Below, in pieces: positions 3,425 to 54,144 of a stretch of 64,000 bases of DNA (position 1 is the stretch's first letter; the number at the start of each line of letters is the position of its first letter). Under the pieces are notes generated by a model, which was not told the origin of the DNA, did no database searches, and worked only from the letters and a program-made list of their open reading frames with translations. The position numbers and the translations under genes are program-made. Location: the IMG/VR virus record IMGVR_UViG_3300005918_000016; one strand, written 5' to 3'. This DNA is from a virus (Duplodnaviria > Heunggongvirae > Uroviricota > Caudoviricetes).

Positions 3425-4012
3425 TCATTTGTTTTCTTCCGCCAGGAGCAACTCCTGGACCCGCTGGATTTCCTCGGTGGTGTGTATGGTGCCACCGCTG
3501 TTCAGCCGCAGGTAGAACCGCAGCCGCTCTTTACGGGAAAGGTCCACAAACGAAACATGGACATTGGGTAACCGACGCACATCCCGCAGTGACAGGTCAC
3601 GGAACCAGAACGCCTTCCCGTCGTCCATCTCCGCTGGGATCACCCCTTCTAGCCAACGGAGCGTCGCCCGGATCCTCTGTTGTCCGTCGATCACCTCAGC
3701 CGCTGCGTCCAGCCAGGACACCCCCTCTGGAAGATTCTCGTCCGTCTCGTACCTCTGGATGTATATCGGCGGAACCGGACCACCTGTGATCAGGTGCCCT
3801 ATGAAGCGGGACGCCTGCGAGTCCGTCCAGACCAGCCCCCTCTGATAGTCTGGGTTCAGGTCCCAAGGGACCTTGTTTTTCCGCCCAATCGCCCGAACCT
3901 CCTCCAGCAGGAAGTCTAGGGGAAAGTCTAACTGACCAGTTGGCAAGGGCCAGTCCTGGTAGCTACGCAGGGTCGAGTCCACTTCCGGCCTGTTTTTGAC
4001 ATTGCTTCCCAT
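3425..4012 (-). CDS. DUF262 / ParB-like nuclease domain protein (DGQQR motif)
   Basis: DYQRGLVW...IDGQQRIRATLRWL matches the DUF262 signature. Start MGSNVKNRP is preceded on the minus strand by the GAGTAG box, the UTR hairpin and GAGGAG. Confidence 0.65.
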   Translation of the reverse strand: MGSNVKNRPEVDSTLRSYQDWPLPTGQLDFPLDFLLEEVRAIGRKNKVPWDLNPDYQRGLVWTDSQASRFIGHLITGGPVPPIYIQRYETDENLPEGVSWLDAAAEVIDGQQRIRATLRWLEGVIPAEMDDGKAFWFRDLSLRDVRRLPNVHVSFVDLSRKERLRFYLRLNSGGTIHTTEEIQRVQELLLAEENK

Positions 4013-4062
4013 CGTTTCATTCTCCTCAGGGGTCATTTGCCCCTCACTTACTCTACTCAGCG

Positions 4063-4090
4063 GGGTCAGCAGATGATCCCATTGCACGTA
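4063..4090 (-). promoter_or_regulatory. GGGATCATC-N13-GAGTAG promoter-like motif (minus-strand instance) with UTR hairpin at 4028-4045
   Basis: Plus strand reads CTACTC-N13-GATGATCCC; exact 13-nt spacer. Lies upstream of the DUF262 gene start at 4012. Confidence 0.55.
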
Positions 4091-4148
4091 AGGATCTAAG
4101 GAAGGTGTGTCCGAAACGGCCCTTGAGCAAAGACCCCCAGAACTTTTG

Positions 4149-4176
4149 TTGATCATCTCAGATTCCGTTGGAGTAG
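4149..4176 (+). promoter_or_regulatory. TTGATCATC-N13-GAGTAG promoter-like motif
   Basis: Exact 13-nt spacing. Hairpin CGGGGTGGACCCCCG and AAGGAG follow; ATG at 4237. Confidence 0.5.
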
Positions 4177-4236
4177 TGTGGGTAGCCTGAGGAAGGCTCA
4201 CTAACATCGGGGTGGACCCCCGAGAAGGAGAATGGG

Positions 4237-6150
4237 ATGGGGTTTCTTATCTGGATCCTGATGCTTACGGGCATCGGAGCGGTCGGTCTCGGCGTCTGGC
4301 TCATCGCAAGACGCAAAATCTGGATGCTGAAGACGTGGCGAAAGGTCACCCGCAAGGTCACGGACAAGGTCCAGATGATGGACCAACGGGTGACACAGAC
4401 AGACTTCGACGCTCAGGTGCAGGTCGAGATGGACGCTGCGGAGGCGAACGTACCGAAGGGCTTGGGCTTGTTGAGCATCCCGCTCTTCCTGTACGCCCTG
4501 TTGGCCATTTTCTTCAGTTCCATGATGGTGGACGTGCCGCAATCCGGGTTCATGGAACTGGAGCGGAACTTCGGTGGGGCTTCGATGCCCGCAGGCCAGA
4601 TCATCGCTACACAAGGCGAGAACGGCCCCCAGGCAGCGCTGCTGTCCCCCGGTCTCAAGTGGGTCATGCCCTTCATGTACTCCACGAATGAACGGGAGCC
4701 TGTGGTTATCCCGGACGGGATGATCGGCGTGATCACCACCAAGGCGGGCAAGTCCATGCCGGAGGGAATGATCTACGGCCCCAAGTTCACGGACTTCGAC
4801 GGTTTCCTCGACGCCCAGGTCTTCCTGGATCATGAGGACGGGTACAAGGGCCAACAGGTGACAGTGGCCCTGCCGGGAACGTGGAAGTTCCACTCAGGGG
4901 TGTACTCGATGACAGAGGCACCTATGACCAACGTGGAGATGGGCCATGTGATGGTCGTGAAGGCCAACTACGGCGATGTGCCCGAGGAGCGGGCAACCAT
5001 CGAGATCACGGATCTCGTGGAGAAGGAGATTGCCCTGTCCAAGGATGAACTGGAAGCGGCATATCTGGAGGCGGAAGACGCCGAGCAGCGACGGCTGCTG
5101 GCTGCGGGGGTGGCGGAGAAGGACATCAGGATCGACCGCAAGAGCTTGAAGGTGCGAAAGACCAAGATCGTGCTGGTGGAGGTCAAACGGAAGATCCCCG
5201 ACCCGCTGGTCGATGTGGGTGAGGCGGGCATCTGGCGTGATGCGCTGGTCCCCAACAAGTATCCAATGCATCCGTTCGCCCACGAGATGACGGATATCAA
5301 TACGATGCGCCTGCGAATCTCCTACACTCCGCCTGGTGAGGAAGGGGAAGACGACGGGCGGGTCATCGTCCGTAGCAAGGATGGGTACGAGTTCCCGATG
5401 GACATACGCATTGTGTACCATGTGGAACCAATGAACGCCCCTTGGGTCCGTGCAATGGTAGGTGACGACGAGAAGATCGGGGATGTCGTGATGACCCCTA
5501 CGGTCCTCTCAATCTCCCGTGTGCTGGCAGGTCGGTCCAACGTGCTGGACTTCTTCGCAGACCTGGAGGTCCGGCAGAAGGACGCTAAGGATCTCATCGC
5601 CAAGAAGTGCGCCGTGTACGGTGTGACGGTCGATGAGGTACTCATCGGGCGTGTGGGCGACGAGGCTTCCCTGGGTGAACTGATGAAAACCCAGCGGGAC
5701 CGTGAGATCGCCGTGCAGCAGCAGGTCACCTTCGCCGTACAGCAGAAGGCAGCGGAACAGCAGAAGCGGCTGAACAAGACGATGCAGGAGGCGGAGGAGG
5801 AGAAGAAGCTCGCCGCCGCTGCGTATCAGGCCCAGGTCGCCGTACAAAACAAGAAGAAGACCATCACCGACGCTGAGGCCGCTGCCGAGAAGGTGACGAT
5901 TGCAGCCACGGCTGAAGCCGAGCGGATCTTCAAGATCAAGAAGGCGGAAGCGGACGGCTACACCCTGAAGGTTGCCGCCCTTGGTCCCCAGGGGGTGGCA
6001 ATGCTGGAAGCCTTCCTGATCATCTCCGAGGGCAAGATCAAGATCACCCCGAACGTCGCAGTCAGCGGCGGAGGTGCCAACGGGGGCAACAACGCCTTCG
6101 AGGCACTGATGGCCATGATGCTCCAAGAGAAGGCCGGACCCGCCAATTAG
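4237..6150 (+). CDS. SPFH/band-7 flotillin-like membrane protein
   Basis: N-terminal TM helix. Long Ala/Glu/Lys/Gln-rich coiled-coil tail (AEAERIFKIKKAEADGY) typical of the flotillin C-terminus. Confidence 0.55.
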   Translation: MGFLIWILMLTGIGAVGLGVWLIARRKIWMLKTWRKVTRKVTDKVQMMDQRVTQTDFDAQVQVEMDAAEANVPKGLGLLSIPLFLYALLAIFFSSMMVDVPQSGFMELERNFGGASMPAGQIIATQGENGPQAALLSPGLKWVMPFMYSTNEREPVVIPDGMIGVITTKAGKSMPEGMIYGPKFTDFDGFLDAQVFLDHEDGYKGQQVTVALPGTWKFHSGVYSMTEAPMTNVEMGHVMVVKANYGDVPEERATIEITDLVEKEIALSKDELEAAYLEAEDAEQRRLLAAGVAEKDIRIDRKSLKVRKTKIVLVEVKRKIPDPLVDVGEAGIWRDALVPNKYPMHPFAHEMTDINTMRLRISYTPPGEEGEDDGRVIVRSKDGYEFPMDIRIVYHVEPMNAPWVRAMVGDDEKIGDVVMTPTVLSISRVLAGRSNVLDFFADLEVRQKDAKDLIAKKCAVYGVTVDEVLIGRVGDEASLGELMKTQRDREIAVQQQVTFAVQQKAAEQQKRLNKTMQEAEEEKKLAAAAYQAQVAVQNKKKTITDAEAAAEKVTIAATAEAERIFKIKKAEADGYTLKVAALGPQGVAMLEAFLIISEGKIKITPNVAVSGGGANGGNNAFEALMAMMLQEKAGPAN

Positions 6151-8664: not shown

Positions 8665-8700
8665 GGACATGTGGTCAACTTCTCAAAACCAGGAGTCCTG

Positions 8701-9468
8701 ATGAACAAGACAGGAATCGGCTACCTGGACTACTCGTGGAACCCCCTCACGGGATGTTCCCCGGTGTCTGCCGGGTGCCAGAACTGCTGGGCCAAGAAGA
8801 GGGCCACCGAGAACGCTGCAACGGGGTCGAAGTGGTACGACCCGAAGGACCCCTTCAAGCCTACGCTGCACCGGGACAGGCTGGACGAGCCCTCCCACCG
8901 CAAGACGCCGTCAGTAATCGGTGTGGGCTTCATGGGGGACATCTGCCACCCGGATCTCCCGGAGGACGCCCTGGCGTGTGTGCTCCAGTCCTGCAGGATC
9001 GCAAACCAGCACACCTACCTGTGGCTGACGAAACGAGCAGACAGGCTGGGAGAGGCCCTCCTCGGGGTGGACCCGGTCCCGAACGTATGGCTCGGTGTGT
9101 CCGTGGAAAATATGGCGGGCGCTATTGAGCGCCTGCCTATCCTTGCACAACTGGCGGAACGTGGATGGCACACCTGGGTCTCGATGGAGCCGCTGATCGG
9201 GTCGGTGACCCTCGCCCCGTCCCCACACCACAACTGGGATCTTGTCGAGTGGGTGATCGTGGGTTGCGAGTCTGGGGACGACCGGAGGCCGATGGACCCC
9301 GCTTGGGTGACCCAGCTTCATGGCGAATGCGACCACTTTGGCATCCCCTTCTTCCTCAAGCAGATGGAGGTGGGGGGCAAAGTCCAGGCGCACCCGACAC
9401 CCTACCTCAACGGTGTACAGCACACCGAGATCCCCGACGCAATCCAGAAGCACCTGGGAACGTCCTAA
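8701..9468 (+). CDS. phage Gp37/Gp68 family (DUF5131) protein
   Basis: WNPLTGCSPVSAGCQNCWA... N-terminal Cys motif and overall pattern typical of PF07505. Confidence 0.65.
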   Translation: MNKTGIGYLDYSWNPLTGCSPVSAGCQNCWAKKRATENAATGSKWYDPKDPFKPTLHRDRLDEPSHRKTPSVIGVGFMGDICHPDLPEDALACVLQSCRIANQHTYLWLTKRADRLGEALLGVDPVPNVWLGVSVENMAGAIERLPILAQLAERGWHTWVSMEPLIGSVTLAPSPHHNWDLVEWVIVGCESGDDRRPMDPAWVTQLHGECDHFGIPFFLKQMEVGGKVQAHPTPYLNGVQHTEIPDAIQKHLGTS

Positions 9469-9968
9469 TGAGCGCCCCGGTCTATCTCTCAGCGTATTGC
9501 GACGCTAGTTATTACTATGTGACTGGGCAGGCCGGGTGGGGCGCATGGCTACGGGACAGCAAGACACGGGTCTTGGTGGCAGCACCGATCCCGTCATCGG
9601 TGGATTGGCTCAAGGGCAACACACAGGTGGAGTTGTTCGCTGTCTACCAGACTGTCCTCTGCGCCTTAAAACATCTGGACAGCGAGACCGGGACGCATCT
9701 CGTTGTGAAGACGGACAACAAAGGGGTCGTTGGGTGGTTTAAAAAGGGGATGGGGTGCGGGGATCGGGAGACGCAGGTAGTAACCGAGACCCTCGCCGCC
9801 GTTGAGGCTGCGGGCGTGACTCTGATTGTGAAGTGGGTGGAAAGCCACCAGCCGAGGAATCGCAACGTGCAGGCATACCTGAACACACGGGTTGATGAGT
9901 TGGCCCGCCGAGCAATGATCCAGGGTGAGCGAGTGTTCTGGAAGAAGCCTATCCGGGAAGCGGTCTGA
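9469..9968 (+). CDS. RNase HI-like
   Basis: DASY...E(LFAV)...TDNKG...H...D catalytic pattern of RNase H. TAATG start/stop overlap with the upstream gene. Confidence 0.65.
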
Positions 9969-13562: not shown

Positions 13563-15428
13563 ATGCGAGTTGCATCCGTTGAGAAAGTACCGGGACCCAG
13601 AAGAGCCTTTGATCTGACAATCCGCAATACGTCCTGTTACTTTGTGGGGCCTGGAATTTTAGCACACAACTGTGGGATGAGATACGAAAACAGGAAGCTA
13701 GTGCAGGCGCTGACACGGGGCGACGGGACGATAGGCGAGGATATCACCCGGAACGTCCTGCTGATGAAGGGTGCAGTCAAGGTACTGCCCCCGACGTTAC
13801 CGGATGGCACCCCCACCCCAGACGATGTGTGGGTGCGGGCCGAGGTTGTGGTGACCCACGATGACTTCGTCACCCACTTCAAGGGCGAATCCAACCCCCG
13901 TAACACGGCGAGCGGCACTGCGAAACGTCAAACTGACAACAGCAAATGTGCCTTCCTGACGGTTATCTGCTATCAACTCCTGCCCGGTGGTCGCCCGATG
14001 GCGTCCAAGAGCGCCGAGTTGAAGGCCCTGGCCACGATGGGCTTCCAGGTACCCCGCTGGGGTGAGTACAAGGGACTGGCAGCAGTGGAGGCCCTCTACC
14101 AGGACTACATCGCCACCGTCAGGAAGAGCCTGGGTTACGATATCGACGGGCTGGTGATCGAGGTGGCTGACGCCAACGCCCGTGCGATGCTTGGGGAACT
14201 GAACAACCGCCCCAAGGGTGCCTGCGCTTATAAGTTTCCTCATGAGTCCAAGCCGACCACGCTGCGGAGCATCCGTTGGCAGGTAGGCAACAGCGGGCGC
14301 ATCACCCCGGTGGCCGAATTTGACGTTGTGAACCTCGCAGGGGCGAACGTCAAACAGGCGAGCCTTCACAACATCAGCAACATCGAAGGGCTGTGGGGCA
14401 AAGCCACTGTTCCGGTACCCGGCGACGCAATTCTCGTTTCTCGCAGAAATGATGTTATCCCCTATGTAGAGGAAGTCCTGAACAAGTTCGGTACAGGCAC
14501 GGGACTCCGCACCCCGACCCAGTGCCCCTCCTGCCAGGGAGCCTTGGTGCGGGACGGCGAGTACCTTGTGTGCCGCAGCGAGGAGTGCCCCGCCCAGGCA
14601 ACCGGGGCCATCAGACGCTGGGTCAAGAAGCTCGGTGTCCTACACGTTGGCGAGACCCTGATCGACGCAATGGTGGATGCGTTCCCTTTCACCCTCACCG
14701 AGGAAGTGTTTGAAGTCACCTTCGGCGTAAAGAAGGATGACGTGAAGACCCTCCCGGCAGCGGATCAGGAACGGATACGCAACGCCCCAATGGACATCGC
14801 TGACCTCTACAACCTGGACCTGGACGAGGTCGCCTCCCTGGAGTTGAGCGGACGGCGTGTCGGCGGCTCGGCGGACAAAGCCCTCAGGAACCTTAACGCC
14901 AAGAAGACGCTGCCCCTGCACGTCCTGATAGGGAGCCTGGGTATCCCCCTGATCGGGCGCAGCATGGCCAAGGTGGTTGTGGACGCTGGATACACCACCC
15001 TGAACCTGCTCTTCAAGGCCAAGGTGCATGTTCCCATCGTCACCAGGGGCAAGACCCTCCCGGCAGTTGCCAGCATCCCTGGAATGGGGGACACGAAAGC
15101 GCTGGCCTTCGTGACGGGATTTGCTGCCAAGGCCGGGCTGATCGTCAAGTTGCGGGCCACGCAAGACCTTGGCGGAGCCGACATCACCATCCAGGACATC
15201 TCCGGGCCGTTGCTCGGGATGACCTTTTGCCTGACTGGCACCCGTGAACCCGCCCTGCTCGATGCTATCGAAAAGGCGGGTGGCACAATGAAGGGCAGCG
15301 TGTCCAAGAAACTATCCTACCTGATCGCCCTGGACCCGGACAGTACCTCGGGCAAAGCGAAAAAGGCCAAGCAGTACGGCGTGAAGGTGATCGGCTTGGA
15401 CGAGGCGTACAAGCTGGCGGGGGTGTGA
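13563..15428 (+). CDS. ligA: split-intein C-half (36 aa, ...GILAHN) fused to the NAD-dependent DNA ligase C-terminal extein (Cys4 Zn finger, HhH, BRCT)
   Basis: MRVASVEKVPGPRRAFDLTIRNTSCYFVGPGILAHN|CGMRYENRKLV...TRGDGTIGEDIT continues the LigA sequence after KLDG. CPSCQG...CRSEECPAQ zinc finger. C-terminal BRCT-like region. Confidence 0.75.
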   Translation: MRVASVEKVPGPRRAFDLTIRNTSCYFVGPGILAHNCGMRYENRKLVQALTRGDGTIGEDITRNVLLMKGAVKVLPPTLPDGTPTPDDVWVRAEVVVTHDDFVTHFKGESNPRNTASGTAKRQTDNSKCAFLTVICYQLLPGGRPMASKSAELKALATMGFQVPRWGEYKGLAAVEALYQDYIATVRKSLGYDIDGLVIEVADANARAMLGELNNRPKGACAYKFPHESKPTTLRSIRWQVGNSGRITPVAEFDVVNLAGANVKQASLHNISNIEGLWGKATVPVPGDAILVSRRNDVIPYVEEVLNKFGTGTGLRTPTQCPSCQGALVRDGEYLVCRSEECPAQATGAIRRWVKKLGVLHVGETLIDAMVDAFPFTLTEEVFEVTFGVKKDDVKTLPAADQERIRNAPMDIADLYNLDLDEVASLELSGRRVGGSADKALRNLNAKKTLPLHVLIGSLGIPLIGRSMAKVVVDAGYTTLNLLFKAKVHVPIVTRGKTLPAVASIPGMGDTKALAFVTGFAAKAGLIVKLRATQDLGGADITIQDISGPLLGMTFCLTGTREPALLDAIEKAGGTMKGSVSKKLSYLIALDPDSTSGKAKKAKQYGVKVIGLDEAYKLAGV

Positions 15429-19519: not shown

Positions 19520-19800
19520 ACCGTTCCTTAAAACCTGCTAAAATGTAACAGGCATCAAGTTTGAAGCTGTGCCGAATCTTGGTGACCCAAGTACCTCGGT
19601 AGTAAACCTCCGGCCCAACGGTAAGGGCTCGATTGACGACCGCTCTAATCGCCCGAATCCTAAGGAACTGGTCCGTCGAAGACGGAATCGCTCTCTCAGC
19701 ACTCGTTTTACGCCTCGTGGATGATCGCCAGCTTTGGTGTGTTCATTCCCAGAACATCTGGGCACACCAGAACCTCCTACCCAATCAGCATAAGCCTTCC
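19520..19800 (-). ncRNA. omegaRNA-like scaffold, orphan copy
   Basis: Conserved ~280-nt block. Confidence 0.55.
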
Positions 19801-19873
19801 TGCCACAACAGCTCCCTGTTTCAAGCAGGAATAGTTAGACTTTAGTAAGTTTGAGGGGTACTGTCAAGTACCC
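19520..19873 (-). mobile_element. second MITE-like TnpB-element derivative (left end plus omegaRNA/right end, no tnpB)
   Basis: Same left-end/internal-deletion junction as the 2143-2496 copy. Right end ...GGAACGGT at 19520 (minus). Confidence 0.7.
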
Positions 19874-19890
19874 TCCACCATGGGGATTGT

Positions 19891-20591: not shown

Positions 20592-20793
20592 TCCTGAAGC
20601 GTAAATCCAGGGGCACCTCCCATCTGGAAAAGTTCGAAGCCTAGACAACCCCACCATCGCCGGTATCATACGAATAACAGAGGAGGCATTGACATGCCCC
20701 TGTTCCTTTATTTCGCTGGTTCCTTCCTTGTGGCCTTCGGGGCCGAAATGATCCACACGGCCCAGACCATTATTGACGAGGAGTAGGCCCTAA

Positions 20794-20991
20794 ATGCTAG
20801 AGAAGACGGGCTTCTGCACATGCTGCGGGGCCACTCAAAAAATGAGCGCTCTCCGGCAAACCCGTGTCCGGGGCGTCCCGGTGATAGAGTGCCTAGATCG
20901 AGATGCCTGTGAACGACGCTGCAAGGACGGGCGGTTAAAACGTCTCATCGGGTTGTCCGTAAGGTCTCACACGGGGTCGCTTTTCGGCTGA
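20794..20991 (+). CDS. Cys-rich small protein
   Basis: GAGTAG at 20781 plus RBS. Confidence 0.35.
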   Translation: MLEKTGFCTCCGATQKMSALRQTRVRGVPVIECLDRDACERRCKDGRLKRLIGLSVRSHTGSLFG

Positions 20992-21000
20992 ATGGAGTAG
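20973..21000 (+). promoter_or_regulatory. degenerate motif GGGGTCGCT-N13-GAGTAG
   Basis: Correct spacing, 6/9 match in the upstream box; AGGAGG; ATG at 21021. Confidence 0.3.
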
Positions 21001-21020
21001 ACCAAGTCAGGAGGTGTTCC

Positions 21021-21626
21021 ATGTCCGTCAAATTCACCAAGAAAGGCATTGCCATCGAAAAGGGTACCACTCCCCCCTCGTGGGAGGACACCGACCAGCA
21101 GTATCAGGAGTACGTGGGCCACCAGCTTCTCAAAGCTCGACTGGAGCACCTGAAAATCTTGGAGGAAATCGCAGGGGTGCTGCCCGTGTTCGAGGAACGG
21201 CACCTCCTCAATATGGAGGCGCATCAGGCAGCGATGATTTACCTGAACCTCCCGGATCCAGGCCCCCTTTTCCCGAGCTACCAACGAAACTTTATCACCA
21301 TGAACACCACGGTAATGGACCCTGCAATTTCCTGTGCCGGGGTGATGCCCCATGTCAGGGTACTTCTTGGGTGGCTCGCTTTTCCTGAGACAATCCGAGA
21401 AGGCGTCTGCTACCACCTCTTGACGGCGGGACGTGCTCTTTACCCTTTTGGATACGACTCAGGCCGTTCGGGTTTCACCCTCCTCCAGGAGCGTGTGGGA
21501 CACTGCGTCGCTGCCGGTCTCGCTGCCTGTGAAAAACTCGGTTTTGATGGTACAAGGACGCCCCGGAAATCGGTGGTTGAACAACTCGTCCAGACTGCGG
21601 CCCTTCTCACGGAGGACACCGAATGA
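21021..21626 (+). CDS. hypothetical protein
   Basis: RBS AGGAGG. Confidence 0.45.
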   Translation: MSVKFTKKGIAIEKGTTPPSWEDTDQQYQEYVGHQLLKARLEHLKILEEIAGVLPVFEERHLLNMEAHQAAMIYLNLPDPGPLFPSYQRNFITMNTTVMDPAISCAGVMPHVRVLLGWLAFPETIREGVCYHLLTAGRALYPFGYDSGRSGFTLLQERVGHCVAAGLAACEKLGFDGTRTPRKSVVEQLVQTAALLTEDTE

Positions 21627-22390
21627 GCACCGCAATCATCGTACTCGGTCATGGTGGTGGGATCCCCGTCCCTGGGATGGGCAACACGAACTTCGCCATC
21701 GTCCCGAATGCCCCCAGAGGGATCCCCGGACCAGAGTTGCTCCAAAGCCATCCCTTCTGGTTGGTCGACTGCGGACCAGAGACCCTCGCCACCCTGGTCG
21801 GGTTGCGTGCCCTGAAGAACCTGAAGGGGATCTTCATCACGCACGTACACTACGATCACACTGGGGGCCTACTCGGGCTGGCCTACACCTTCAAATACAT
21901 GTTGAAGCGCAAGATCCCTCTCGTGATCCCCAGCAAGCTCCAAGTGCTGCTGGAACAAACGATGGTGGAGTTGACACGGACATCAGGTGGCCCAGCTAAC
22001 GTGTGGTTGGACTACTGGCAGGGCTGCTTCCTGGGGAATGGTGCTGACCTGGAGGTGGAGGGTTTCACGGCGGAGTTCTTCCCCGAGGATCACAACATCG
22101 AAGATTTCCCTGTCTATGGGGTCAAGATCCGGGTGCCCTCCTTGCGTAAGGTTTACTTCACAGGCGACACCGTTAACCCCTCGGACAAGGACGCAGACAT
22201 CATCTTCCAGGACTGTCAGGTCTACGGGGACGATTCCAAGTACGACGTCCACTGTTCCTACCAAAAAATCCTCCAGGCGTTCCCCGAAGGATGCCGGGAA
22301 CACGTCATCCTCTGTCACTGCCCCCCGCAACCGCAGTTCGAGGAGGACGGTTTCAAGCACGCCACGCAGTGGAGAGTGTTTTACGTCTGA
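21623..22390 (+). CDS. MBL-fold metallo-hydrolase (HxHxDH: THVHYDHTGG)
   Basis: Canonical metallo-beta-lactamase motif II. Immediately followed by a solitary CRISPR-like repeat. Confidence 0.6.
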   Translation: MSTAIIVLGHGGGIPVPGMGNTNFAIVPNAPRGIPGPELLQSHPFWLVDCGPETLATLVGLRALKNLKGIFITHVHYDHTGGLLGLAYTFKYMLKRKIPLVIPSKLQVLLEQTMVELTRTSGGPANVWLDYWQGCFLGNGADLEVEGFTAEFFPEDHNIEDFPVYGVKIRVPSLRKVYFTGDTVNPSDKDADIIFQDCQVYGDDSKYDVHCSYQKILQAFPEGCREHVILCHCPPQPQFEEDGFKHATQWRVFYV

Positions 22391-22394
22391 GTGC

Positions 22395-23030
22395 CTAAGT
22401 CGCATCTTTTGGCAAAAGGTGCGTGGATTGAAACGGCGTGACCCCTGACAGATAGATGATCGCCTGACCGCTCACGGGGTCATAGGAACCCTTAACGGTC
22501 AGGGACGCCTCCGCCGGGCGGGACACCACGGGGATCTTGGGCCAGTCCCGGATGAGGATCCCAACCAGCCGCTCGGACTCCTGGACGATTCTGTGGGGCG
22601 GGATGAGCAGCGTGAGGGTGTCCCCATCGAAAGCAACGGGATGGAACCCCCGCTTCCACAACCACTCTAACAGGACGATCAACTCGGGGTGCTCCTCGGC
22701 CAGGATCTGGATGCCCTTCACCAAGGGGCGGAAGGCGTTGTCCGGTAAACCGAACGCCGAGTCAGGGATCGAGACCTCGGTGAGGCCCTCTGTCCAAGCA
22801 CCCCACTGGGGATTCACGGGAACGGTACGGGGAGCGCCACGCTTGCCCCACAGCGCCCCCAGAGCCTCCTGTTCCTGTGCCTGCTCCTCTTCGGTCAACT
22901 GGACCCACAGGAGGCGCTCACGGGACACGAAGCCCTGGTCCTCATCCGGGGTCCAGGGCAGTCCTTCGGGAAGTGCCCTGCCTACGAGGATCATGAGGGC
23001 CAGGTCACGGTGCTGTTCTAAAAGTGTCAT
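22395..23030 (-). CDS. hypothetical protein (C-terminal codons run through the solitary repeat, so the true end is uncertain)
   Basis: ORF only. Confidence 0.3.
   Translation of the reverse strand: MTLLEQHRDLALMILVGRALPEGLPWTPDEDQGFVSRERLLWVQLTEEEQAQEQEALGALWGKRGAPRTVPVNPQWGAWTEGLTEVSIPDSAFGLPDNAFRPLVKGIQILAEEHPELIVLLEWLWKRGFHPVAFDGDTLTLLIPPHRIVQESERLVGILIRDWPKIPVVSRPAEASLTVKGSYDPVSGQAIIYLSGVTPFQSTHLLPKDAT
22399..22434 (+). CRISPR. solitary CRISPR-like repeat unit GTCGCATCTTTTGGCAAAAGGTGCGTGGATTGAAAC
   Basis: Same length and orientation as the array repeat. 3' handle GTGGATTGAAAC is identical; stem changed by paired substitutions (GCATCTTTT/AAAAGGTGC). Confidence 0.75.
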
Positions 23031-23179: not shown

Positions 23180-23365
23180 ATGGAGCCCATCCTTCTGACT
23201 ATCAACGAGGTTGCCCGTTTGTTCGGGATGCACCCAAATTCGATCCGTAAACTCATGGGCGATGGCAGACTACCCTTTCTTAAGATCGATAAGTCGCTGC
23301 GGTTCGAAACTGATGCCGTGATGCTATTTATTGAGAAACTCAGGAAACAGAGAGCGAAGGATTGA
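23180..23365 (+). CDS. small HTH DNA-binding protein (excisionase/MerR-like)
   Basis: LTINEVARLFGMHPNSIRKLMGDG helix-turn-helix. Confidence 0.5.
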   Translation: MEPILLTINEVARLFGMHPNSIRKLMGDGRLPFLKIDKSLRFETDAVMLFIEKLRKQRAKD

Positions 23366-24761
23366 CGTCTTGAAAGTCACTCGCATTCTTCAGGCAGATG
23401 TTCCGCCTGCTTTGTTGCAGGTGTGTCGAGCTACCAGATTTCTTCGTGCAGATGTCTGGCGTCGGTACGGTGCCCTGAAGAACGTGGGTAAAAGTGCCTT
23501 GGCTATCCGTAAAGAAATTGTAGCAGGTGGCATCTACGTCACTCTCGCCATAGACGGGACCATACGTAACGAAACAACCAAAGATGTCGTGAACGACATC
23601 CTGTTCTACAAAGCAGCAGCGAAAGGAAAGGTTCGCAAAGCCATTTGGCAGCGCACCGACAATGAAATGGAACGCAAACGACTCTACACGCTTCTGCGAT
23701 CAGACGCATGGATGGAGGATCCCTTCCTTCACCGCCAAATGCGTAAACACTTCAAGCACGGCGTCTCACACACGAAAAATCAGTTTATCGTGAGGTCCGA
23801 CAAATTCAAAATAGAGCACGTTAATGGGTATCTGACGATCGTCATCCAAATTGCCCGTAAATACGGTGACGACATAGTTCTAACGACAACGTCAAACGGC
23901 ACGAGTGTGGATCTGAGTAGCTGTAACCTACGCATCATTGTGAAGGGTGGTACAACTGAGATCCACTACAGCGTGGATAAAAGCAGTGGGCGTCCGCATG
24001 GTAGCCGGACGCTGGGCGTTGATAAAGGCTACACCGAAGCATTTGTTGATTCGGATGGTGAGCATCAGGGTGAGCAGTTCGGTGCTGTGATGACTGAGTA
24101 CAGCGACAAGGTCAGCAAGACGGGTTCCGCTAGAAACAAGTTGTACGCCCTAGAAAAAAAGCATCGTCAAAGCGGAAACTCCAGAAAAGCTGACAACATC
24201 AGGGCACACAACCTTGGGTGTAAAAAGATTGATGCTCGTAAACGATTGGCTCAAACACGACTACGGGGTGTAGCCTTTAAGGCTGCTCATGCCATCGTGG
24301 ATAAGGCAGCGGTGGTCGTGTCAGAAGACTTAACCTCTCCGATCGCAAAAAAGCGACCTTGGAAAAGGTTTAATAGAAGAATGAGTGGCTGGGCAAAGGG
24401 AGCACTTGCTGAGGCCCTCGATTCAGTTTGTACGCAGCGTGAAGCCAGCCATGAGTTGGTAAACTGTGCTTACACATCGCAAATGGACTCTGTAACGGGT
24501 TTGCTGCAAGGCAAGCGTGTTGGAGACAAATTTTACCGTATTAACGGGGATGTTATTCAGGCCGATCACAATGCTGCGCTGAACGTGTTAGCCCGGTTGT
24601 CTGACAAGGACATCGGGTGTTTCACCCCTTATCAAGAGGTAAAACGCATCTTGTTGGCACGTTCTCCGGCGGAACTGACCGTCAAAAGGCACGAGTTGCA
24701 GTCGAGAGGCTCTCAACCGTGTGCGGATAAACCCTCACGATCAGGAGTGATCAATGCTTGA
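23331..24761 (+). CDS. divergent TnpB/RuvC-like nuclease lacking zinc-finger cysteines
   Basis: GVDKGYTEAF (RuvC-I-like), VVVSEDL (RuvC-II E), ADHNAALNV (RuvC-III). The usual CxxC...CxxC ZnF between RuvC-II and III is absent. Confidence 0.5.
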   Translation: MRNSGNRERRIDVLKVTRILQADVPPALLQVCRATRFLRADVWRRYGALKNVGKSALAIRKEIVAGGIYVTLAIDGTIRNETTKDVVNDILFYKAAAKGKVRKAIWQRTDNEMERKRLYTLLRSDAWMEDPFLHRQMRKHFKHGVSHTKNQFIVRSDKFKIEHVNGYLTIVIQIARKYGDDIVLTTTSNGTSVDLSSCNLRIIVKGGTTEIHYSVDKSSGRPHGSRTLGVDKGYTEAFVDSDGEHQGEQFGAVMTEYSDKVSKTGSARNKLYALEKKHRQSGNSRKADNIRAHNLGCKKIDARKRLAQTRLRGVAFKAAHAIVDKAAVVVSEDLTSPIAKKRPWKRFNRRMSGWAKGALAEALDSVCTQREASHELVNCAYTSQMDSVTGLLQGKRVGDKFYRINGDVIQADHNAALNVLARLSDKDIGCFTPYQEVKRILLARSPAELTVKRHELQSRGSQPCADKPSRSGVINA

Positions 24762-25789: not shown

Positions 25790-28060
25790 ATGAGCTATCC
25801 GACCCGTTCCGATGTGTCCCAGTGCTGTGCCGATTTTAAAGCGTGGCTTCGCAGGCAGGGGCTTGGGGGAAAACCCGCCAGGGACTACGCCCGATGTGTC
25901 CGGGCAGTAGAGAAACACACCTCTGGTTATTATTTCACCGCCGAAAATGTCGAGAAAGTGCTCAAGGTCAACACCCGTGTCTATCGGACAGCGTGGGCGG
26001 GCAAAAACGGTTTCATGGCCTACTGGGCGCAGCGGGAGAAAGAGGTGACCCAGGCCTGTGGTGTCCTGGACGTTCTGGCAGCAATGTCGGGTGGTGGGGC
26101 ACCAAAGCCGACCAAGGGGTCACCTATGAAGGTAGAACCCATCTCCCAGAAGGAGTTCGAGAAGATTTGTGGGGCACCGAAGCCGTCGCGTCAGCTTCCT
26201 GACTTCTCCCAGTTGGCAGAAGGCCACGTGGATGCCGTCAAAACGGATGACCAGGGTCACCTCCACGTCACTATGTGCATCGCTCGTAACAGTAACCTCG
26301 CCAAAATGGTGCTGGAGGGCCTCCCCCTGAGGTTGGTCCCGGCGGACCCGACCAAGCAGCCCCGATACACGGATGAGGATCTCCAGCAGGCACTGGAAGA
26401 GGACCGGGGGAAGGAGGGTCGTGCGGGTCGTGACTCCGCCCGGAACATCCTGAAAGAGATCATCGGCAGGTTGTTGGGGAAGACCAAGACGGAAGTCAAC
26501 GACATCGCTCGGTACTCCCACGCTAAGGACAACGAACTCAAGGACTTCATCCTGGAGTTGGTGCAGGCGCAGGCGTCCTACAGGAACGGACTGAACCTCG
26601 TCTACGAGACCCTGCTCGGGGCTGTCCCGGAGGATCTGGGGGACGGGGCGGGACGGAAGGCCCAGGCGATCCTGAAAGCGCTCCCTCAGAAGGATCTCAT
26701 CGAGGAGATCCTCGGGGATAAGCCTTCGGACGAATCGGGTCTGCTCACCTTCACCAACAGCCTCCTCATGGGGCTGGCCAGGGTGTTCGACACGTCGGAC
26801 GTGGACACGGGGATCGCTTGGAAGCCCGAGATGACGTCGGAACGGATCATCGAAAGCATCCACAGGATACGGACAAAACAGGAGAACGGCCTCGTTGTAG
26901 CGGCCCTGCGGCGGGTGGCCGAGAAGACCCTGGGCCTCAAACTCCCCCCCGGTTTGAGCCCTGAAATGTTGGAGCAGCACATCCAGCACAAGGTGTCTGA
27001 CTTGCAGGGGCTGTCCACCGGGGGTCGCCGGTGGGAACAGACCCTCTGGACTGTGTACCGGATGGTGGTAGAGTCTGCCCCTCCCGGTACGGCTTCCCCC
27101 GAGGGGATCATTGGAGCAGTCCAGGACAAGGTCAAAGCCATCCAGTCCGAGGCAGTCCAGTGGCGGGCCGCTCTTCTGAACATCATCCCGATGTTGGGAG
27201 GGGAACCCAACGGGGATGCGACCCCGCAGAGGGCGTTGGAGATCATCGGTGCCCTGCTCAAGGAACGGGATCTCAAAACGTTGCAAGCCGGGACGGGGAC
27301 ACCCACAGGAGCACCTGTCATGTGGGAACAGGCGCTTCGTTCCATTGCCGGTTTGATCGGGGGGGACGACTGGACTAACGCTGAAACCCCTGAGGAGATC
27401 CGGGACGAGACCGTAGCTCTGGTGCGATCCCTGGAGCAGCGGGAACGGTTGTGTGTCCTGTCCAAACTGGCAGGGATGATGGGCGACTCCTATATGGAGG
27501 TCGTGGACGATGCCGTTGGACCTGAGGGTGTGGGAGGTTCCCACCAGGATGTGGAACATGATGTCCTGGTGGCCCTTGTGAAGGCTGTCTCGCAGGACCG
27601 CACGGCACCCGAGGAGAAACCCTCGGGCCTCCCCTACAACCTGTTCAAGCTGGTCACCCTGCTTGGCAGTCCGCTGGTGGGGGACATCGCTTCGGCACCC
27701 AAGGAGGCGGGAACCACCGACGAGGCCAAGACCGAGTACATCGTCAACCTCATCGTTGAGCAGTGGAAGGAGATGGCTGGATGGCGACAGGCCATGCTCG
27801 ACCTGCGCCTCACGGACCTCAAGTACTATTGCCCCACTTTGTCGGAACAGGAGGTGGCAGTTGTCAGCCTCGTTGATGCCAAGAGGACCTTGAGCGAGGG
27901 CATCCGTAAACTCTTCCTGAGGAAGACCGCATCGCCAGTTTCCGCCGATCATGTCATTCTCGCAATGGCTGCTCGGTATGGTGAGAGGACGCACCTGGAG
28001 GTGCCCAAGTCTGCGGTGGACGATCTGTTGGGCACCCTCCAGGTACTGCTCAAAACTTGA
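25790..28060 (+). CDS. large protein with an N-terminal integrase-N/SAM-like domain (FKAWL...GFMAYW) and a long alpha-rich tail; member of a 4-gene family
   Basis: Shares the domain ending W-x-G-x-x-GF(M/L)A(Y/F)W with 45246, 58482 and 61136. GAGTAG at 25751 plus AGGAG RBS. Confidence 0.5.
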   Translation: MSYPTRSDVSQCCADFKAWLRRQGLGGKPARDYARCVRAVEKHTSGYYFTAENVEKVLKVNTRVYRTAWAGKNGFMAYWAQREKEVTQACGVLDVLAAMSGGGAPKPTKGSPMKVEPISQKEFEKICGAPKPSRQLPDFSQLAEGHVDAVKTDDQGHLHVTMCIARNSNLAKMVLEGLPLRLVPADPTKQPRYTDEDLQQALEEDRGKEGRAGRDSARNILKEIIGRLLGKTKTEVNDIARYSHAKDNELKDFILELVQAQASYRNGLNLVYETLLGAVPEDLGDGAGRKAQAILKALPQKDLIEEILGDKPSDESGLLTFTNSLLMGLARVFDTSDVDTGIAWKPEMTSERIIESIHRIRTKQENGLVVAALRRVAEKTLGLKLPPGLSPEMLEQHIQHKVSDLQGLSTGGRRWEQTLWTVYRMVVESAPPGTASPEGIIGAVQDKVKAIQSEAVQWRAALLNIIPMLGGEPNGDATPQRALEIIGALLKERDLKTLQAGTGTPTGAPVMWEQALRSIAGLIGGDDWTNAETPEEIRDETVALVRSLEQRERLCVLSKLAGMMGDSYMEVVDDAVGPEGVGGSHQDVEHDVLVALVKAVSQDRTAPEEKPSGLPYNLFKLVTLLGSPLVGDIASAPKEAGTTDEAKTEYIVNLIVEQWKEMAGWRQAMLDLRLTDLKYYCPTLSEQEVAVVSLVDAKRTLSEGIRKLFLRKTASPVSADHVILAMAARYGERTHLEVPKSAVDDLLGTLQVLLKT

Positions 28061-33439: not shown

Positions 33440-34070
33440 TCGTCTCCTAGCTCTCACCAAAGCAGCCGAAGCTCTTGGTGTTCACCGGAATACGCTTCGG
33501 GACTGGGCTGATGAAGACAAGATCCCTCACGTTCGCACCGTGGGTGGGCATCGCCGTTTCAAGCAATCAGACATTGACAGGTTGCTGGGCAATCTCCCAA
33601 TCGATAAACAGCAAACGGAACGAGTTGTTATCTACTGCCGTGTGTCCAGCCACGATCAGAAAAAGTCAGGCGATCTTGAACGTCAGGCTGGACGGGTCAC
33701 GATACACAGCATCACGAAGCAGTACAAGTTGGTCGAAGTGCTTCAAGACGTTGGGTCGGGCATGTCAGACACACGCCCAAAACTCCGAAAGTTGTTCAAA
33801 CTGGTCAATGCCCATGAAATAGATAGGGTGGTTGTTGAACACAAAGACCGCCTGACTCGCTTCGGGTTCAATCTGGTCAATGCTTACTTCAACAGTCATG
33901 GTGTCACCATCGAGTGGACACAAGAAGTCCTTGGCAAAGGCTATCAGGAAGAGTTGGTCGAAGACATTTTGACGCTCATGTCGTCGTTCTCCGCTAAGAT
34001 TTATGGCAAACGTTCGGCAGAACGACGTAAGGCCAAGAAAGCAGCAGAAGCGGCAGAGACAGTCAAATGA
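33424..34070 (+). CDS. tnpA: IS607-type TnpA (MerR-like HTH plus serine recombinase)
   Basis: N-terminal HTH (LGVHRNTLRDWADEDKIP); VVIYCRVSSHDQ catalytic-Ser region; resolvase fold motifs. Confidence 0.75.
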
Positions 34071-35491
34071 AATGTCGCATCTTCCGACTTCATAAAGATA
34101 CCAATCAGTCCAAAATCGACAAGTTGGAAGTCCTACACAATGCCTACGTCAAGTACGTCCGTATCTGCGTACAAACGATGCTTGACCAGCGGGTCTATAA
34201 TCTCCCGAAAGCCGCCAAACAAACGTTCTTCCCACGGGCCACCAACCTTACGTCTCAGATCGAAAAGAACGCACGAGACCATGCAATACAAATCGTGAGC
34301 GCTTGGGCGAAAGCTACTTATGCTCGTAAGTTGAAGCCAACCATTACCAACCTTAAGCATGACGGTACCCTTACCGATCAGGATGCCAAAGCACTCTATG
34401 TCATCGGATTGAAGTCCATCAGTAAACCGTGGAAAGTTATTACTCAAGACCATCTCGACGCCTACCACACCCTGTTGGACACCTACGGAGGTAATAAGCC
34501 TATCGTAAGAAACAACCTACCCATGAGGTTGTCGGAGATGACGGCTCGATTGGAAGATACATCGAAGGCCCCTCTCGGGGATTTCTGGCTGAGAGTATCC
34601 TCGTTAGAAGCTCGTAAGTCCGTCTGGTTACCCCTCGTTGGGAATCCTTACATCCAACAGGCTGATCAGGTCAGTAAAGGCATTTCGGTCCGCAAGACCA
34701 AGCGAGGCTTCTGGCGCTTTGAAGCTGTCAGCAAGGCCGAGTGGGCCGTTCCTGAAGCACAGGAGGGTTGGCCTAAGTTGGGCGTTGACGTTGGTCTGAA
34801 CGTCCTTGCAGCTACCTCAGATGGAGTGACCTATGGTGAGCACGTCAAGCCCAAATTCGATAAGCTCTATGCTCGTGTCAGAAATCTCCGAGCAAATCGC
34901 CAACGACAGGATTTGAAAGACAACAGTCCAAGGTTAGATCACCTTGAGAGCAAGTTGAGTGGGTTGATCAAGACAGAAACGGGTCGTGTGGTGAATACCC
35001 TCATCGCCCGTCATCCCGAGACGGTGTTCGTAGTCGAAGATCTTGATCTTCGAGGTTGCCGGGGTCAAAAGCGGTTCGCTTACAGGGCGTTACAGATCAA
35101 CTTGGAAAGGAAGGCTCCAACAAAGAAAGTGAACCCTGCTTACACGTCGCAGGAGTGTCCTTCTTGTGGTTATGTTCATCGAGGAAACCGAAGTTCAATA
35201 AGGTTCCGTTGCCGCTGTTGTGGCAGGAAGGCTCACGCTGATTGGGTAGGAAGTGCTGGTGTGCTCAGACGTTCTGGGAACGAACACATTGGAACTGGTG
35301 ATCACCCACGAGGCGTAAAACGAGTGCTGAGAGAGCGATTCCGTCTTCGACGGACCAGTTCCTTGGGATTCGGGCGAAAAGAGCAACCGTCATTCGAGCC
35401 CTTACCGTTGGGCCGGAGGCTTACTACCGTTGGATCAGATTCGTCTGGCAGCGGCACAGCTTCAAACTTGATGCCTAGTAGATTCAAGTAG
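34067..35491 (+). CDS. tnpB: TnpB (RuvC-like, zinc finger)
   Basis: GVDVGLN (RuvC-I), VVEDL (RuvC-II), CPSCG...CRCCG ZnF, HADWVGSAG (RuvC-III). About 90% identical to the 54106-55572 copy. Confidence 0.85.
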   Translation: MKCRIFRLHKDTNQSKIDKLEVLHNAYVKYVRICVQTMLDQRVYNLPKAAKQTFFPRATNLTSQIEKNARDHAIQIVSAWAKATYARKLKPTITNLKHDGTLTDQDAKALYVIGLKSISKPWKVITQDHLDAYHTLLDTYGGNKPIVRNNLPMRLSEMTARLEDTSKAPLGDFWLRVSSLEARKSVWLPLVGNPYIQQADQVSKGISVRKTKRGFWRFEAVSKAEWAVPEAQEGWPKLGVDVGLNVLAATSDGVTYGEHVKPKFDKLYARVRNLRANRQRQDLKDNSPRLDHLESKLSGLIKTETGRVVNTLIARHPETVFVVEDLDLRGCRGQKRFAYRALQINLERKAPTKKVNPAYTSQECPSCGYVHRGNRSSIRFRCRCCGRKAHADWVGSAGVLRRSGNEHIGTGDHPRGVKRVLRERFRLRRTSSLGFGRKEQPSFEPLPLGRRLTTVGSDSSGSGTASNLMPSRFK

Positions 35492-35506
35492 GTTTTGAGG
35501 AACGGT
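35221..35506 (+). ncRNA. omegaRNA-like scaffold overlapping the tnpB 3' end
   Basis: Conserved block shared with three other copies. Confidence 0.55.
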
Positions 35507-45245: not shown

Positions 45246-46682
45246 ATGAGCTTCCCTACCAAAGCCGAGATCCAAAAGCACCTCCCGGAGTACGTCCGGT
45301 GGGTGGAAGCGACCCACAATCTCTCACAGAAAACGGTCCGGTACTATGTCCAGTGTATCCTAGACCTGATCCAAGACCTGTTAGACGTACCCGCACACCA
45401 GTTCGAAGAAAGGGTGACAACCCGTCTGCAGACCATCCTGACCTTCCAGTCATCCTTTTGGAATGGGCCAGCCGGATTCATGGCCTATTGGCGGAGGACG
45501 GAGGCGTCTCCCTCTCTGAGTCAGAACAATGGAGGAGTTATGAGCTTCCCTACCAAAGCCGAAGTCAAAAAGCACCTTCCGGAATACATCCGGTGGACCG
45601 CTCATAACCGGGGATTGCAGGGGGAGACGATCAAGCACCATCTCCTGTACATCCAGCGATTGATCGATGTGTCCCCAGAACGGTTCACGGAAGAGTGGGT
45701 TGCCCTCAAACAATCGGGGCAGTCTAACTTTGACACAAGCCATTGGTTAGGACAGTCCGGGTTCATGGCCTACTGGAACGAAGCCAAGGGACCGATAGGC
45801 CGGTTGACCACCGAAGACGTCATCAACCTCTTCCCTGAATACCGGACCTGGGTCGACAGACATCATGATCTGAGGGGCCTCAGTTTGGTCAATTTCTGTC
45901 GGTACATCCAAAACGTGATTGGGAAGAGGGGCGTCAGCCAGATGGTCATCGCTCTAGCTTTAAAAACCCAGCCAGAGTGGTACACCGACGCCTGGGAAGG
46001 CCCCAAAGGCTTCCTGACCTTCCTCAAGGAGTACAGCGCCTCAGAGACCCCAACGGAGGACACCTACAATCCGATAGTGACATCAGAAGACAACTTCTCC
46101 CCAAATAAAAAGTTCTATGATGAACAGAACAATCCCTGGGAAACAGCGATGCATCGTGTGGCCCGTTCCTTAAGGATCTATGATAGTGAGAACATGTCCG
46201 CAGAAGTCGTGGCGGACAAGATCCAGGATGTCGTCCAGATCGTGACGAACCGGCCCAACCCGTGGAAGGAAGCGCTCTTGTCCGTGACCAATGCCTTCGG
46301 CTACCCCCCAGAGGGTGACCCCGGACGACCGGCCCGGCAGTTCGCTGGCATGTTCATCCGTCACCTCAAGGGGTCACCGTCGCTGATGCGGGGGCGTACC
46401 TCCCGTGACTGGTTGGCGGCGTTCCGCAAACTGTCAGTCCTGCTGGATGGTGATGATCTGGTGAAGCCCGGAGCGGACCCTGACGACTGTTACACCCTGA
46501 TGGCGAAACTGATCCGGCTGCGGGATGCGGACACCCAGGCCAAGGTGTCGGGCTTCAAGGAAATGCTGACTCAGGCCCTCGCCGCTCGGTACATTGAGAA
46601 AGAGAAAAACACCCTCCCGAGTACCCCCGTGGACGACCTACTCAGGAAATTGTCCCAGATCCCGACGACTCCCGAAGCCTGA
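45246..46682 (+). CDS. tandem integrase-N/SAM-like repeat protein (3 repeats), paralog family
   Basis: Repeats LPEY(V/I)RW...GF(M/L)(A/T)(Y/F)W. GAGTAG at 45201. Confidence 0.5.
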   Translation: MSFPTKAEIQKHLPEYVRWVEATHNLSQKTVRYYVQCILDLIQDLLDVPAHQFEERVTTRLQTILTFQSSFWNGPAGFMAYWRRTEASPSLSQNNGGVMSFPTKAEVKKHLPEYIRWTAHNRGLQGETIKHHLLYIQRLIDVSPERFTEEWVALKQSGQSNFDTSHWLGQSGFMAYWNEAKGPIGRLTTEDVINLFPEYRTWVDRHHDLRGLSLVNFCRYIQNVIGKRGVSQMVIALALKTQPEWYTDAWEGPKGFLTFLKEYSASETPTEDTYNPIVTSEDNFSPNKKFYDEQNNPWETAMHRVARSLRIYDSENMSAEVVADKIQDVVQIVTNRPNPWKEALLSVTNAFGYPPEGDPGRPARQFAGMFIRHLKGSPSLMRGRTSRDWLAAFRKLSVLLDGDDLVKPGADPDDCYTLMAKLIRLRDADTQAKVSGFKEMLTQALAARYIEKEKNTLPSTPVDDLLRKLSQIPTTPEA

Positions 46683-47151: not shown

Positions 47152-47214
47152 TTGCTCCTAAGAAAACATTTGACAAGGAGGGACAATTCGTGTGTTCTTT
47201 AGGTGCTTATCGCT

Positions 47215-47251
47215 GTCGCATCTTCTGAAAAGAATATGCGTGGATTGAAAC
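47215..47251 (+). CRISPR. solitary CRISPR-like repeat unit GTCGCATCTTCTGAAAAGAATATGCGTGGATTGAAAC
   Basis: 37 nt; 3' handle identical; stem variant retained. TTGACA at 47170 lies 40 nt upstream. Confidence 0.7.
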
Positions 47252-47254
47252 GGC

Positions 47255-47482
47255 CTAGAGGACATAGGGTTCTCCCGCCGGGGGTAGGATCTCGTACAGG
47301 TAGTGAACGTCCGGTTTGCCGTCCGTTTTGGAAGCGCAGGATGCCAGGACTCGGAACTCCAAGGGGGTAGGCTTCCGCATGAGCACCACCCGCCAGGCAA
47401 ACAGCGCTTCGGCCTCTTCTGTTTCATACACGATCTTCCACAGATCTTTACCAAGCTCCATCGCTGCTAGTGGTGTCTTCAT
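47255..47482 (-). CDS. small hypothetical protein (76 aa)
   Basis: Ends 4 nt from the solitary repeat. Confidence 0.35.
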   Translation of the reverse strand: MKTPLAAMELGKDLWKIVYETEEAEALFAWRVVLMRKPTPLEFRVLASCASKTDGKPDVHYLYEILPPAGEPYVL

Positions 47483-53830: not shown

Positions 53831-54144
53831 CAATGAAAAGTCACGAAACGATCATCGTCGAACAAACGGTCTCGGACGGGGACTCGGGCTGGATTCACGG
53901 GATGATGACTACCGTCATCCGTTTCATTGTGCCCGAGTTGGACAACCTCGCAATCACCGTTCACAAGGACAGGCTGTACATACTCACCGGCTTCGACCTG
54001 AAGGAGGCACCCGACACCAAGGTCGTGGGGCACTGCCAGCTTCCCGCCGAGACGGTCAACAAAGCCCTGGCCTATGCTGATGCCAAAAAGGAAATCATCA
54101 AAATCCTACAGCCCCTTGTGGATGAGCACATCACCGTTCCTTAA
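53827..54144 (+). CDS. hypothetical protein
   Basis: ATGA overlap. Confidence 0.4.
   Translation: MTMKSHETIIVEQTVSDGDSGWIHGMMTTVIRFIVPELDNLAITVHKDRLYILTGFDLKEAPDTKVVGHCQLPAETVNKALAYADAKKEIIKILQPLVDEHITVP

Follow-up and report, generated by a model that had tools for sequence, protein, structure and literature searches.

A solitary type I-C CRISPR repeat unit behind an Apyc1-like gene in a huge-phage-like genome: a possible RNA anti-CRISPR beside a resident type I-C system

A lone CRISPR repeat in a viral genome that carries a CRISPR system of the same type raises the question of how the element uses a repeat decoy, or tolerates repeat relics, without poisoning its own CRISPR system. Such a repeat is present in the stretch of 64,000 nucleotides analysed here (the window), taken from IMG/VR record IMGVR_UViG_3300005918_000016, a genome catalogued as a viral contig; the analysis assigned the window to the IMG/VR contig IMGVR_UViG_3300025669_002088. 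The solitary repeat unit (SRU), designated SRU-A, occupies positions 22399-22434 of the + strand (GTCGCATCTTTTGGCAAAAGGTGCGTGGATTGAAAC) and follows a gene for a metallo-beta-lactamase (MBL)-fold phosphodiesterase that resembles the anti-Pycsar nuclease Apyc1. Solitary repeat units underlie the RNA anti-CRISPRs (Racrs) described in 2023, and only a small number of them have been studied beyond model systems. That SRU-A is a true solitary CRISPR repeat of type I-C is confirmed here, and its surroundings make a role as a Racr-type RNA possible.

The match of SRU-A to the repeat family of the resident array is not due to chance. The window contains 19 copies of the 12-mer GTGGATTGAAAC, where 0.4 would be expected, and a covariance model built from the repeat family recognizes the unit with 59.3 bits (E = 1.5e-15) and no neighbouring repeat, in agreement with the initial annotation, which had proposed a solitary 36-nt unit of the array family at this place. 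Compared with the array consensus, the 5' 8 nt and the 3' 14 nt are unchanged, so that the conserved 3' handle noted earlier holds good, and the six differences are all transitions, confined to the stem or loop. Both ends of a type I-C repeat are present, 5' GTCGC and 3' ...GCGTGGATTGAAAC (the latter yielding an 11-nt 5' handle once cleaved); the X. citri repeats quoted in PMC9504256 have the same two ends. The complete 36-nt unit is predicted to fold into a hairpin between C3 and G25, with 10 bp in the stem and 3 nt in the loop, after which 11 nt remain as a single-stranded tail (UGGAUUGAAAC), in the register of the array repeat, with a folding free energy of -10.4 kcal/mol (-11.7 kcal/mol for the array repeat). 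As to the view that the hairpin was kept by paired substitutions, the changes are indeed compensatory, but only one of them is a true double substitution (C-G to U-A); the second repairs a mismatch (C x A to U-A) and the third converts A-U to G.U, a variant also found in five array repeats. In an alignment of nine sequences of the family (four array variants, three solitary units and two bacterial units) 88.9% of the cells are paired and four pairs are altered on both sides, and its covariation score was matched by none of 500 shuffles. The unchanged ends of SRU-A, despite six transitions relative to the resident repeats, argue against plain decay.

Although SRU-A is solitary locally, it is not the only dispersed unit: this part of the genome contains three, SRU-A, SRU-B (47215-47251) and SRU-C (2125-2148 together with 2497-2510), each with a different compensated stem. 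All three have the orientation of the array, which places SRU-A in the sense of CRISPR RNA (crRNA). A search of the window, the cas region and the 10 kb adjoining the window on its right brought up no further unit with more than a chance score. A 10-mer, GGATTGAAAC, at 48562-48571 was considered as a unit and rejected as a chance match, being located inside the open reading frame (ORF) 48544-48897, with no upstream hairpin and a score of 12.7 bits (E = 0.5); in the related strain L035 it is kept as coding sequence.

The genome that harbours these units is huge-phage-like and about 528 kb in size; a gene identical to one of the window is located on a 528,260-bp JGI contig. No virion genes were seen in the window and no match was found in the INPHARED phage collection. 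Directly upstream of window position 1 (L001 1157-7201) lies a type I-C interference module, which encodes a Cas3-type helicase, Cas5c, Cas8c/Csd1 and Cas7/Csd2 and ends 196 nt ahead of the first repeat. Besides the Cas3 helicase, the matches are to Cas_Cas5d (1.9e-18), Cas_Csd1 (1.7e-66) and Cas_Cas7 (1.6e-76), and the resident Cas5 matches the type I-C Cas5 chain 8g9t, a pre-crRNA processing endonuclease, at 8e-31. There is no cas6 in the module, and cas1, cas2 and cas4 are absent between cas7 and the array. Therefore the selection for Cas6 recognition suggested earlier does not apply; in a type I-C system without Cas6 the processing enzyme is Cas5c. The array adjoins the cas genes and consists of 17 repeats and 16 spacers; the part described in the initial annotation (1-1112, + strand) holds 16 of the repeats, the remaining one being upstream of the window. 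Together with the effector it lies about 21 kb upstream of SRU-A.

Two features of the array deserve attention in this connection. Its last two repeats (1024-1054 and 1082-1112) are 31 nt long and retain the exact handle, with adjoining, unusually short spacers of 23 and 27 nt; their stems differ and are short and GC-rich, like those of canonical type I-C repeats (e.g. X. citri), and it is possible that these are hybrid or decoy-type units and not products of simple decay. Further, in two related viral contigs the leader and the second and later spacers are common to both while the leader-proximal spacer differs (L001 7434-7467 vs L002 9636-9678), which implies that the array still acquires spacers, presumably with adaptation proteins supplied in trans. 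For two leader-proximal spacers no protospacers were found in IMG/VR. Huge phages with adaptation-less variant type I-C systems were described by Al-Shayeb et al. (2020, PMC7162821); the present element shares with them the huge phage-like genome, Cas5d-type processing and the lack of Cas6 and of Cas1/Cas2 beside the array. It differs in that its helicase has a match to the Cas3 C-terminal domain and in its dispersed solitary repeats, which are unmentioned there.

The position of SRU-A relative to the neighbouring genes is as follows. The MBL-fold gene (21623-22390, + strand, 255 aa) is the last of a three-gene operon (20794-20991, 21021-21626 and 21623-22390) and ends with a stop codon at 22388-22390, after which an 8-nt linker (GTGCCTAA, 22391-22398, + strand) leads to the unit. 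The placement of the unit 8 nt past the stop of a + strand MBL gene, in the crRNA sense, was thus described correctly. The protein matches Lactamase_B_2 of Pfam at 2.9e-16, and its best three PDB matches are 7T28, 7U2S and 7U2R, ahead of RNase Z and other MBL-fold hydrolases; these three structures are Apyc1 anti-Pycsar nucleases (PMC9117128). IMG/VR yielded no related MBL locus. A sigma-70-like promoter site, TAGACA-16-TATCAT (20642-20669, + strand), was found by a consensus scan ahead of the operon, and between this site and SRU-A the scan found no convincing + strand terminator, the sole terminator-like site of that strand (20685-20698) being weak and directly past the promoter-like site.

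On the other side, SRU-A overlaps a convergent gene (22395-23030, - strand, 211 aa), to which the reverse complement of the unit supplies the last 12 codons (FQSTHLLPKDAT) and the stop. By comparison with the 93%-identical strain L009, this gene is evidently real and under purifying selection: of the 8 nucleotides that differ, 7 are at codon position 3, and a single amino acid is changed. Among 14 homologues the conserved part of the protein stops just short of the overlap with SRU-A and the C-terminal tails are variable; in an AlphaFold model with an overall pLDDT (predicted local distance difference test score) of 85 the tail encoded by SRU-A has low pLDDT, and the model has no fold match in PDB. 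A terminator-like hairpin with a T-run that could serve the convergent gene is situated at 22268-22292 (- strand), inside the MBL coding region, so that the minus transcript would carry SRU-A antisense. Most of the neighbouring proteins lack a Pfam, PHROG or PDB match, just as most ORFs of the window lack a Pfam or PHROG match.

In the second intact unit, SRU-B (37 nt, + strand; 52.2 bits, E = 2.4e-13), the loop is GAAA, the stem is interrupted by a single C x U mismatch and the tail is the same. It is carried by a strain-specific cassette of 109 nt (47152-47260, + strand), in place of which the variant strain L035/L036 has about 296 nt with a small minus-strand ORF. The unit is enclosed by an outer stem of 23 bp (47180-47276, + strand), in which 47180-47204 pairs with 47253-47276 by 17 Watson-Crick and 6 G.U pairs. 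When only the flanks were shuffled, this stem gave z = -3.9 (1/1000) on the + strand and z = -1.0 on the - strand, i.e., it forms in + strand RNA only. This is the appearance to be expected of a stable small RNA of the + strand. A gene for a DHH/DHHA1-family phosphoesterase (47611-48540; weak Pfam matches) begins 360 nt downstream of SRU-B and is possibly another counter-defence gene that degrades nucleotide signals.

What could a repeat unit in such a position do? We tentatively prefer, at somewhat less than even confidence, the explanation that SRU-A gives rise to a Cas5c-binding RNA of the Racr type, transcribed together with an anti-defence operon. In this case SRU-A would be transcribed as the 3' end of the three-gene operon that ends in the Apyc1-like cyclic-nucleotide phosphodiesterase; its RNA would fold into the repeat hairpin, and a type I-C Cas5c is predicted to bind it and to cut between 22423 and 22424. 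Having no guide of its own, SRU-A would act as a repeat-only decoy, tying up Cas5c/Cas7 in competition with genuine crRNAs, and the system so affected would most plausibly be that of the host or of a co-infecting element. SRU-B would probably be a stand-alone version of the same decoy, stabilized by its long outer stem.

The grounds for this preference are several. The hairpin register, the tail and the covariation of the stem are kept, and a cognate Cas5c is present; SRU-B is found inside a + strand-specific stem; the layout is repeat-only, as no terminator follows the unit, the downstream sequence is the coding sequence of another gene and no target flanked by a protospacer adjacent motif (PAM) was found in 89.8 kb of the genome. 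The position of SRU-A 8 nt past the Apyc1-like gene, with no convincing terminator between the promoter-like site and the unit, is similar to that of RacrIC1, a type I-C RNA anti-CRISPR of a Bifidobacterium prophage, which is located 11 nt after an acrIC5 homologue and co-transcribed with it (Camara-Wilpert et al., 2023, PMC10651486). In both cases a solitary type I-C repeat-like unit of a mobile element lies in sense a few nucleotides past a counter-defence gene (a putative one in the case of SRU-A), and Cas5 is the relevant processing enzyme. The differences are that the gene upstream of SRU-A is Apyc1-like and not an anti-CRISPR (Acr) gene, that the element of SRU-A encodes a matching type I-C effector and array and that SRU-A overlaps the end of a convergent gene.

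By its features SRU-A is placed in the published class of viral solitary repeat units (PMC10651486), closest to RacrIC1: like them, it is a single repeat in a virus-like genome and imitates CRISPR repeats in sequence and fold. Unlike them, it shares its genome with a complete set of type I-C interference genes, an array of 17 repeats and two further units, the three units differing from each other in their compensated stems. The cognate type I-C system in cis, the three different compensated stems, the absence of SRU-A and SRU-B from relatives and the overlap with a gene end are the unusual traits of the present case.

A number of observations weigh against a Racr-type role. First of all, a cognate type I-C effector and array are encoded in cis, about 21 kb off, so a decoy would also compete with the crRNAs of the element itself, and the published viral units are described as not associated with cas genes (PMC10651486). 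The proposal of an RNA anti-CRISPR made in the initial annotation gains support from the Apyc1-like context and the RacrIC1-like layout, and is complicated in its other part, the sequestering of the host's Cas proteins. A host array with GTCGCATC-type repeats was not found among the GTDB species representatives. The MBL protein scores 30 bits against Anti-Pycsar_Apyc1 of Pfam, the cut-off of which is 50. Consensus scans predicted no sigma-70-like promoter within 250 bp of SRU-A or SRU-B, and SRU-B is antisense to both flanking genes. Neither unit is constant among relatives. The closest syntenic relative, L027/L028 (73% protein identity), has no SRU-A, contrary to the expectation that related elements would have a unit in the same place, and SRU-B is lacking in the variant strain L035/L036, the flanks of which are 98% and 88% identical. 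SRU-C, in turn, is split by an insertion sequence (IS) and has not been purged. Finally, SRU-A is identical in strain L009, which could be taken as a sign of selection; along the whole 2.2-kb alignment with this strain (window 20794-22997), however, identical patches of 124-473 nt alternate with patches that diverge by 10-20%, and this makes the identity uninformative and rules it out as such a sign. The patchiness itself indicates, as far as the alignment goes, frequent short-tract recombination.

The conflict with the resident system would disappear if the dispersed units, the stems of which differ from those of the resident array, were preferred by the Cas5c of the host or of rivals over that of the phage itself, so that foreign type I-C systems are disarmed and the own one is kept working, with the units travelling as 40-110-bp modules by a dedicated route, of which the sharp handle junctions and the absences of SRU-A and SRU-B would be signs. 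We consider this extension quite unlikely. Were the units indeed selective for foreign Cas5c, stem variation could make type I-C systems orthogonal, which would be useful for engineering; if, on the other hand, the units are inert, they document the spread and decay of CRISPR repeats outside arrays.

An inert origin is the most serious competitor of the Racr-type role, though in our opinion a doubtful one. According to it, the units are young, harmless and functionless scars of CRISPR-repeat recombination or exchange between the resident array and other arrays or elements. The structure of the loci provides grounds for such a suggestion. In L027/L028 the MBL gene and the convergent gene overlap by 8 nt and there is no repeat, from which it follows that SRU-A with its 8-nt linker is a lineage-specific piece of 44 bp; this piece sits between the two convergent genes and takes the place of a few terminal codons in one of them, the handle end of SRU-A adjoining the last conserved codon of the convergent gene. 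SRU-B is likewise replaced by a small gene in L035/L036. In all three units, which share the array orientation, the handle end forms a sharp junction with coding sequence, and no nearby promoters or terminators are predicted.

SRU-C is in two pieces. Its 5' part (GTCGTATCCTTTGACAAAGGGTAC, 2125-2148, + strand; 22.8 bits) comprises the hairpin, with a compensated C-G to U-A pair, and its 3' part (ATGTGGATTGAAAC, 2497-2510, + strand; 16.4 bits) the tail, which is also the first 14 nt of the guide position of the omega-RNA of the inserted element. The latter is a tnpB-less mini-IS of 348 nt (2149-2496, + strand), which combines the left end of the resident TnpB elements with their omega-RNA region and is inserted after GGGTAC within the unit. 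All copies of this mini-IS are preceded by GGGTAC or GGGTCC, and the target motif was available because the compensated stem of SRU-C happened to create GGGTAC; a second copy of the mini-IS is found at 19520-19874 (minus strand). Exactly at the handle end of SRU-C begins an in-frame 24-codon relic of a truncated gene (2511-2582, + strand), a paralogue of ORF 1196-2095, with the 3' end of which (2003-2078) the relic aligns. The score of this alignment is 45; shuffles gave 23.6 +/- 3.3, none of 500 scoring as high, and the arrangement suggests a rearrangement that broke at the boundary of repeat and spacer. The recombination alternative raised in the initial annotation thus has circumstantial support, consisting of the absences of SRU-A and SRU-B, the sharp junctions and this relic. 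What speaks for a function is that the units form full hairpins by way of compensatory changes and have an unchanged tail, despite 4-6 differences from the resident repeats: recent copies from the array should be nearly identical to it, and old decaying ones should have lost their structure. Nor would scars be expected to show the significant outer stem of SRU-B, restricted to the + strand, or the location of SRU-A in sense right after an anti-defence-like gene, as in RacrIC1.

Another possibility, which we regard as unlikely, is that the units are single-repeat guides of the CreR, CreA or Cracr type. CreR and CreA are regulatory crRNA-like RNAs, and their viral mimics are termed Cracrs (bioRxiv 10.1101/2024.10.29.618823). 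Here Cas5c would cut the unit, and the downstream RNA with its 11-nt 5' handle would be loaded into Cascade, either that of the phage or that of the host, and would repress or attack a partially matching target. The genome does encode its own Cascade, the 5' handle is intact, viral mimics are documented, and bacterial units of the same repeat family are of this type. Four such units, beside type I-C loci of Sporosarcina, Gammaproteobacteria and Megasphaera (L004 3400-3435; L006 2414-2447, minus strand; L011 540-575; L021 4142-4175), begin with an AT-rich stretch that resembles a promoter; the repeat comes next, then some 35 nt and a terminator. Each of the four has, within 500 nt, a seed match of 12-16 nt flanked by TTC or TTT, with mismatches only at every sixth position; on these sequence features they clearly resemble CreR-type autoregulators in architecture.

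The phage units have the repeat in common with the bacterial ones and differ from them in what follows it. Consensus scans found no terminator or second hairpin 3' of SRU-A or SRU-B, SRU-C likewise lacks the terminator, and the stretch that would serve SRU-A as a guide belongs to the convergent gene and is under coding constraint. The scan that succeeded with the four bacterial controls detected no TT-flanked seed match of at least 8 nt for SRU-A, SRU-B or SRU-C in 89.8 kb of the genome, including the cas promoter region; the at least nine PAM-proximal matches to a PAM-flanked target that characterize CreR, CreA and Cracr RNAs were accordingly found for none of the three in this range, and a crRNA-like guide with a local target was rejected. 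In addition, none of the units is directly preceded by TTC, therefore the empty sites would not be targets. All this suggests that the phage units are repeat-only and not guide RNAs.

It was also considered that a Cas5c cut at SRU-A sets and stabilizes the 3' end of the terminator-less mRNA of the Apyc1-like operon and separates it from antisense read-through into the convergent gene. The distance of 8 nt from the stop codon, the lack of a + strand terminator downstream and the cognate Cas5c in cis agree with such processing, and the convergent genes would otherwise yield antisense RNA. SRU-B, however, is antisense to both its neighbours, so mRNA processing cannot be the general role of the units, and the flanks of SRU-A have no supporting structure (z = +1.9). 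Moreover, we know of no natural precedent for processing of mRNA ends by Cas5c in type I-C systems. For these reasons we find this explanation very improbable. As for the notion that SRU-A is the edge of a larger degraded array or a mini-array, it is scarcely credible and was rejected: the resident array does degenerate at its trailer end, but near SRU-A the covariance-model search found no further unit down to E = 10 and none within hundreds of bases, both flanks are protein-coding and under purifying selection, and, as a check proposed in the initial annotation also made clear, neither the flanks nor the homologous loci contain degenerate repeats. The unit has no Rfam match.

One more solitary repeat of type I-C-like sequence, 38 nt long, was noticed at L003 5667-5704 (on the same contig as L012 8883-8920, another viral contig, of 70 kb). 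It lies just past a gene whose product ends in ...PQPA, has a clear intrinsic terminator about 45 nt further on, and is a candidate Racr or Cracr; no target for it was found in 12 kb.

The TnpB/IS605-type genes are located at 34053-35506 (+), 54133-55647 (-), 49559-50671 (-) and 23331-24761 (+) and at L001 1-451. The set includes two full copies about 87% identical to each other, one gene paired with a resolvase and one that is only distantly related, and the omega-RNA end of each TnpB element has a different flanking guide. ORF 23331-24761 is the distant TnpB relative and is unrelated to ORF 45246-46682; a connection of the repeat units with either of these ORFs was discarded, since neither is linked to the units by position. 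The identification of the 756-aa ORF 25790-28060 as CasPhi was likewise dropped, as the sequence gives it no support. The recognizable genes of the otherwise ORFan-rich window, at 3425-4207 (-), 13563-15428 (+), 8671-9468 (+), 9165-9968 (+) and 4237-6150 (+), are those for a protein with a GmrSD N-terminal domain, an NAD-dependent DNA ligase with BRCT, DUF5131, an RNase H-like protein and an SPFH/Band 7 protein.

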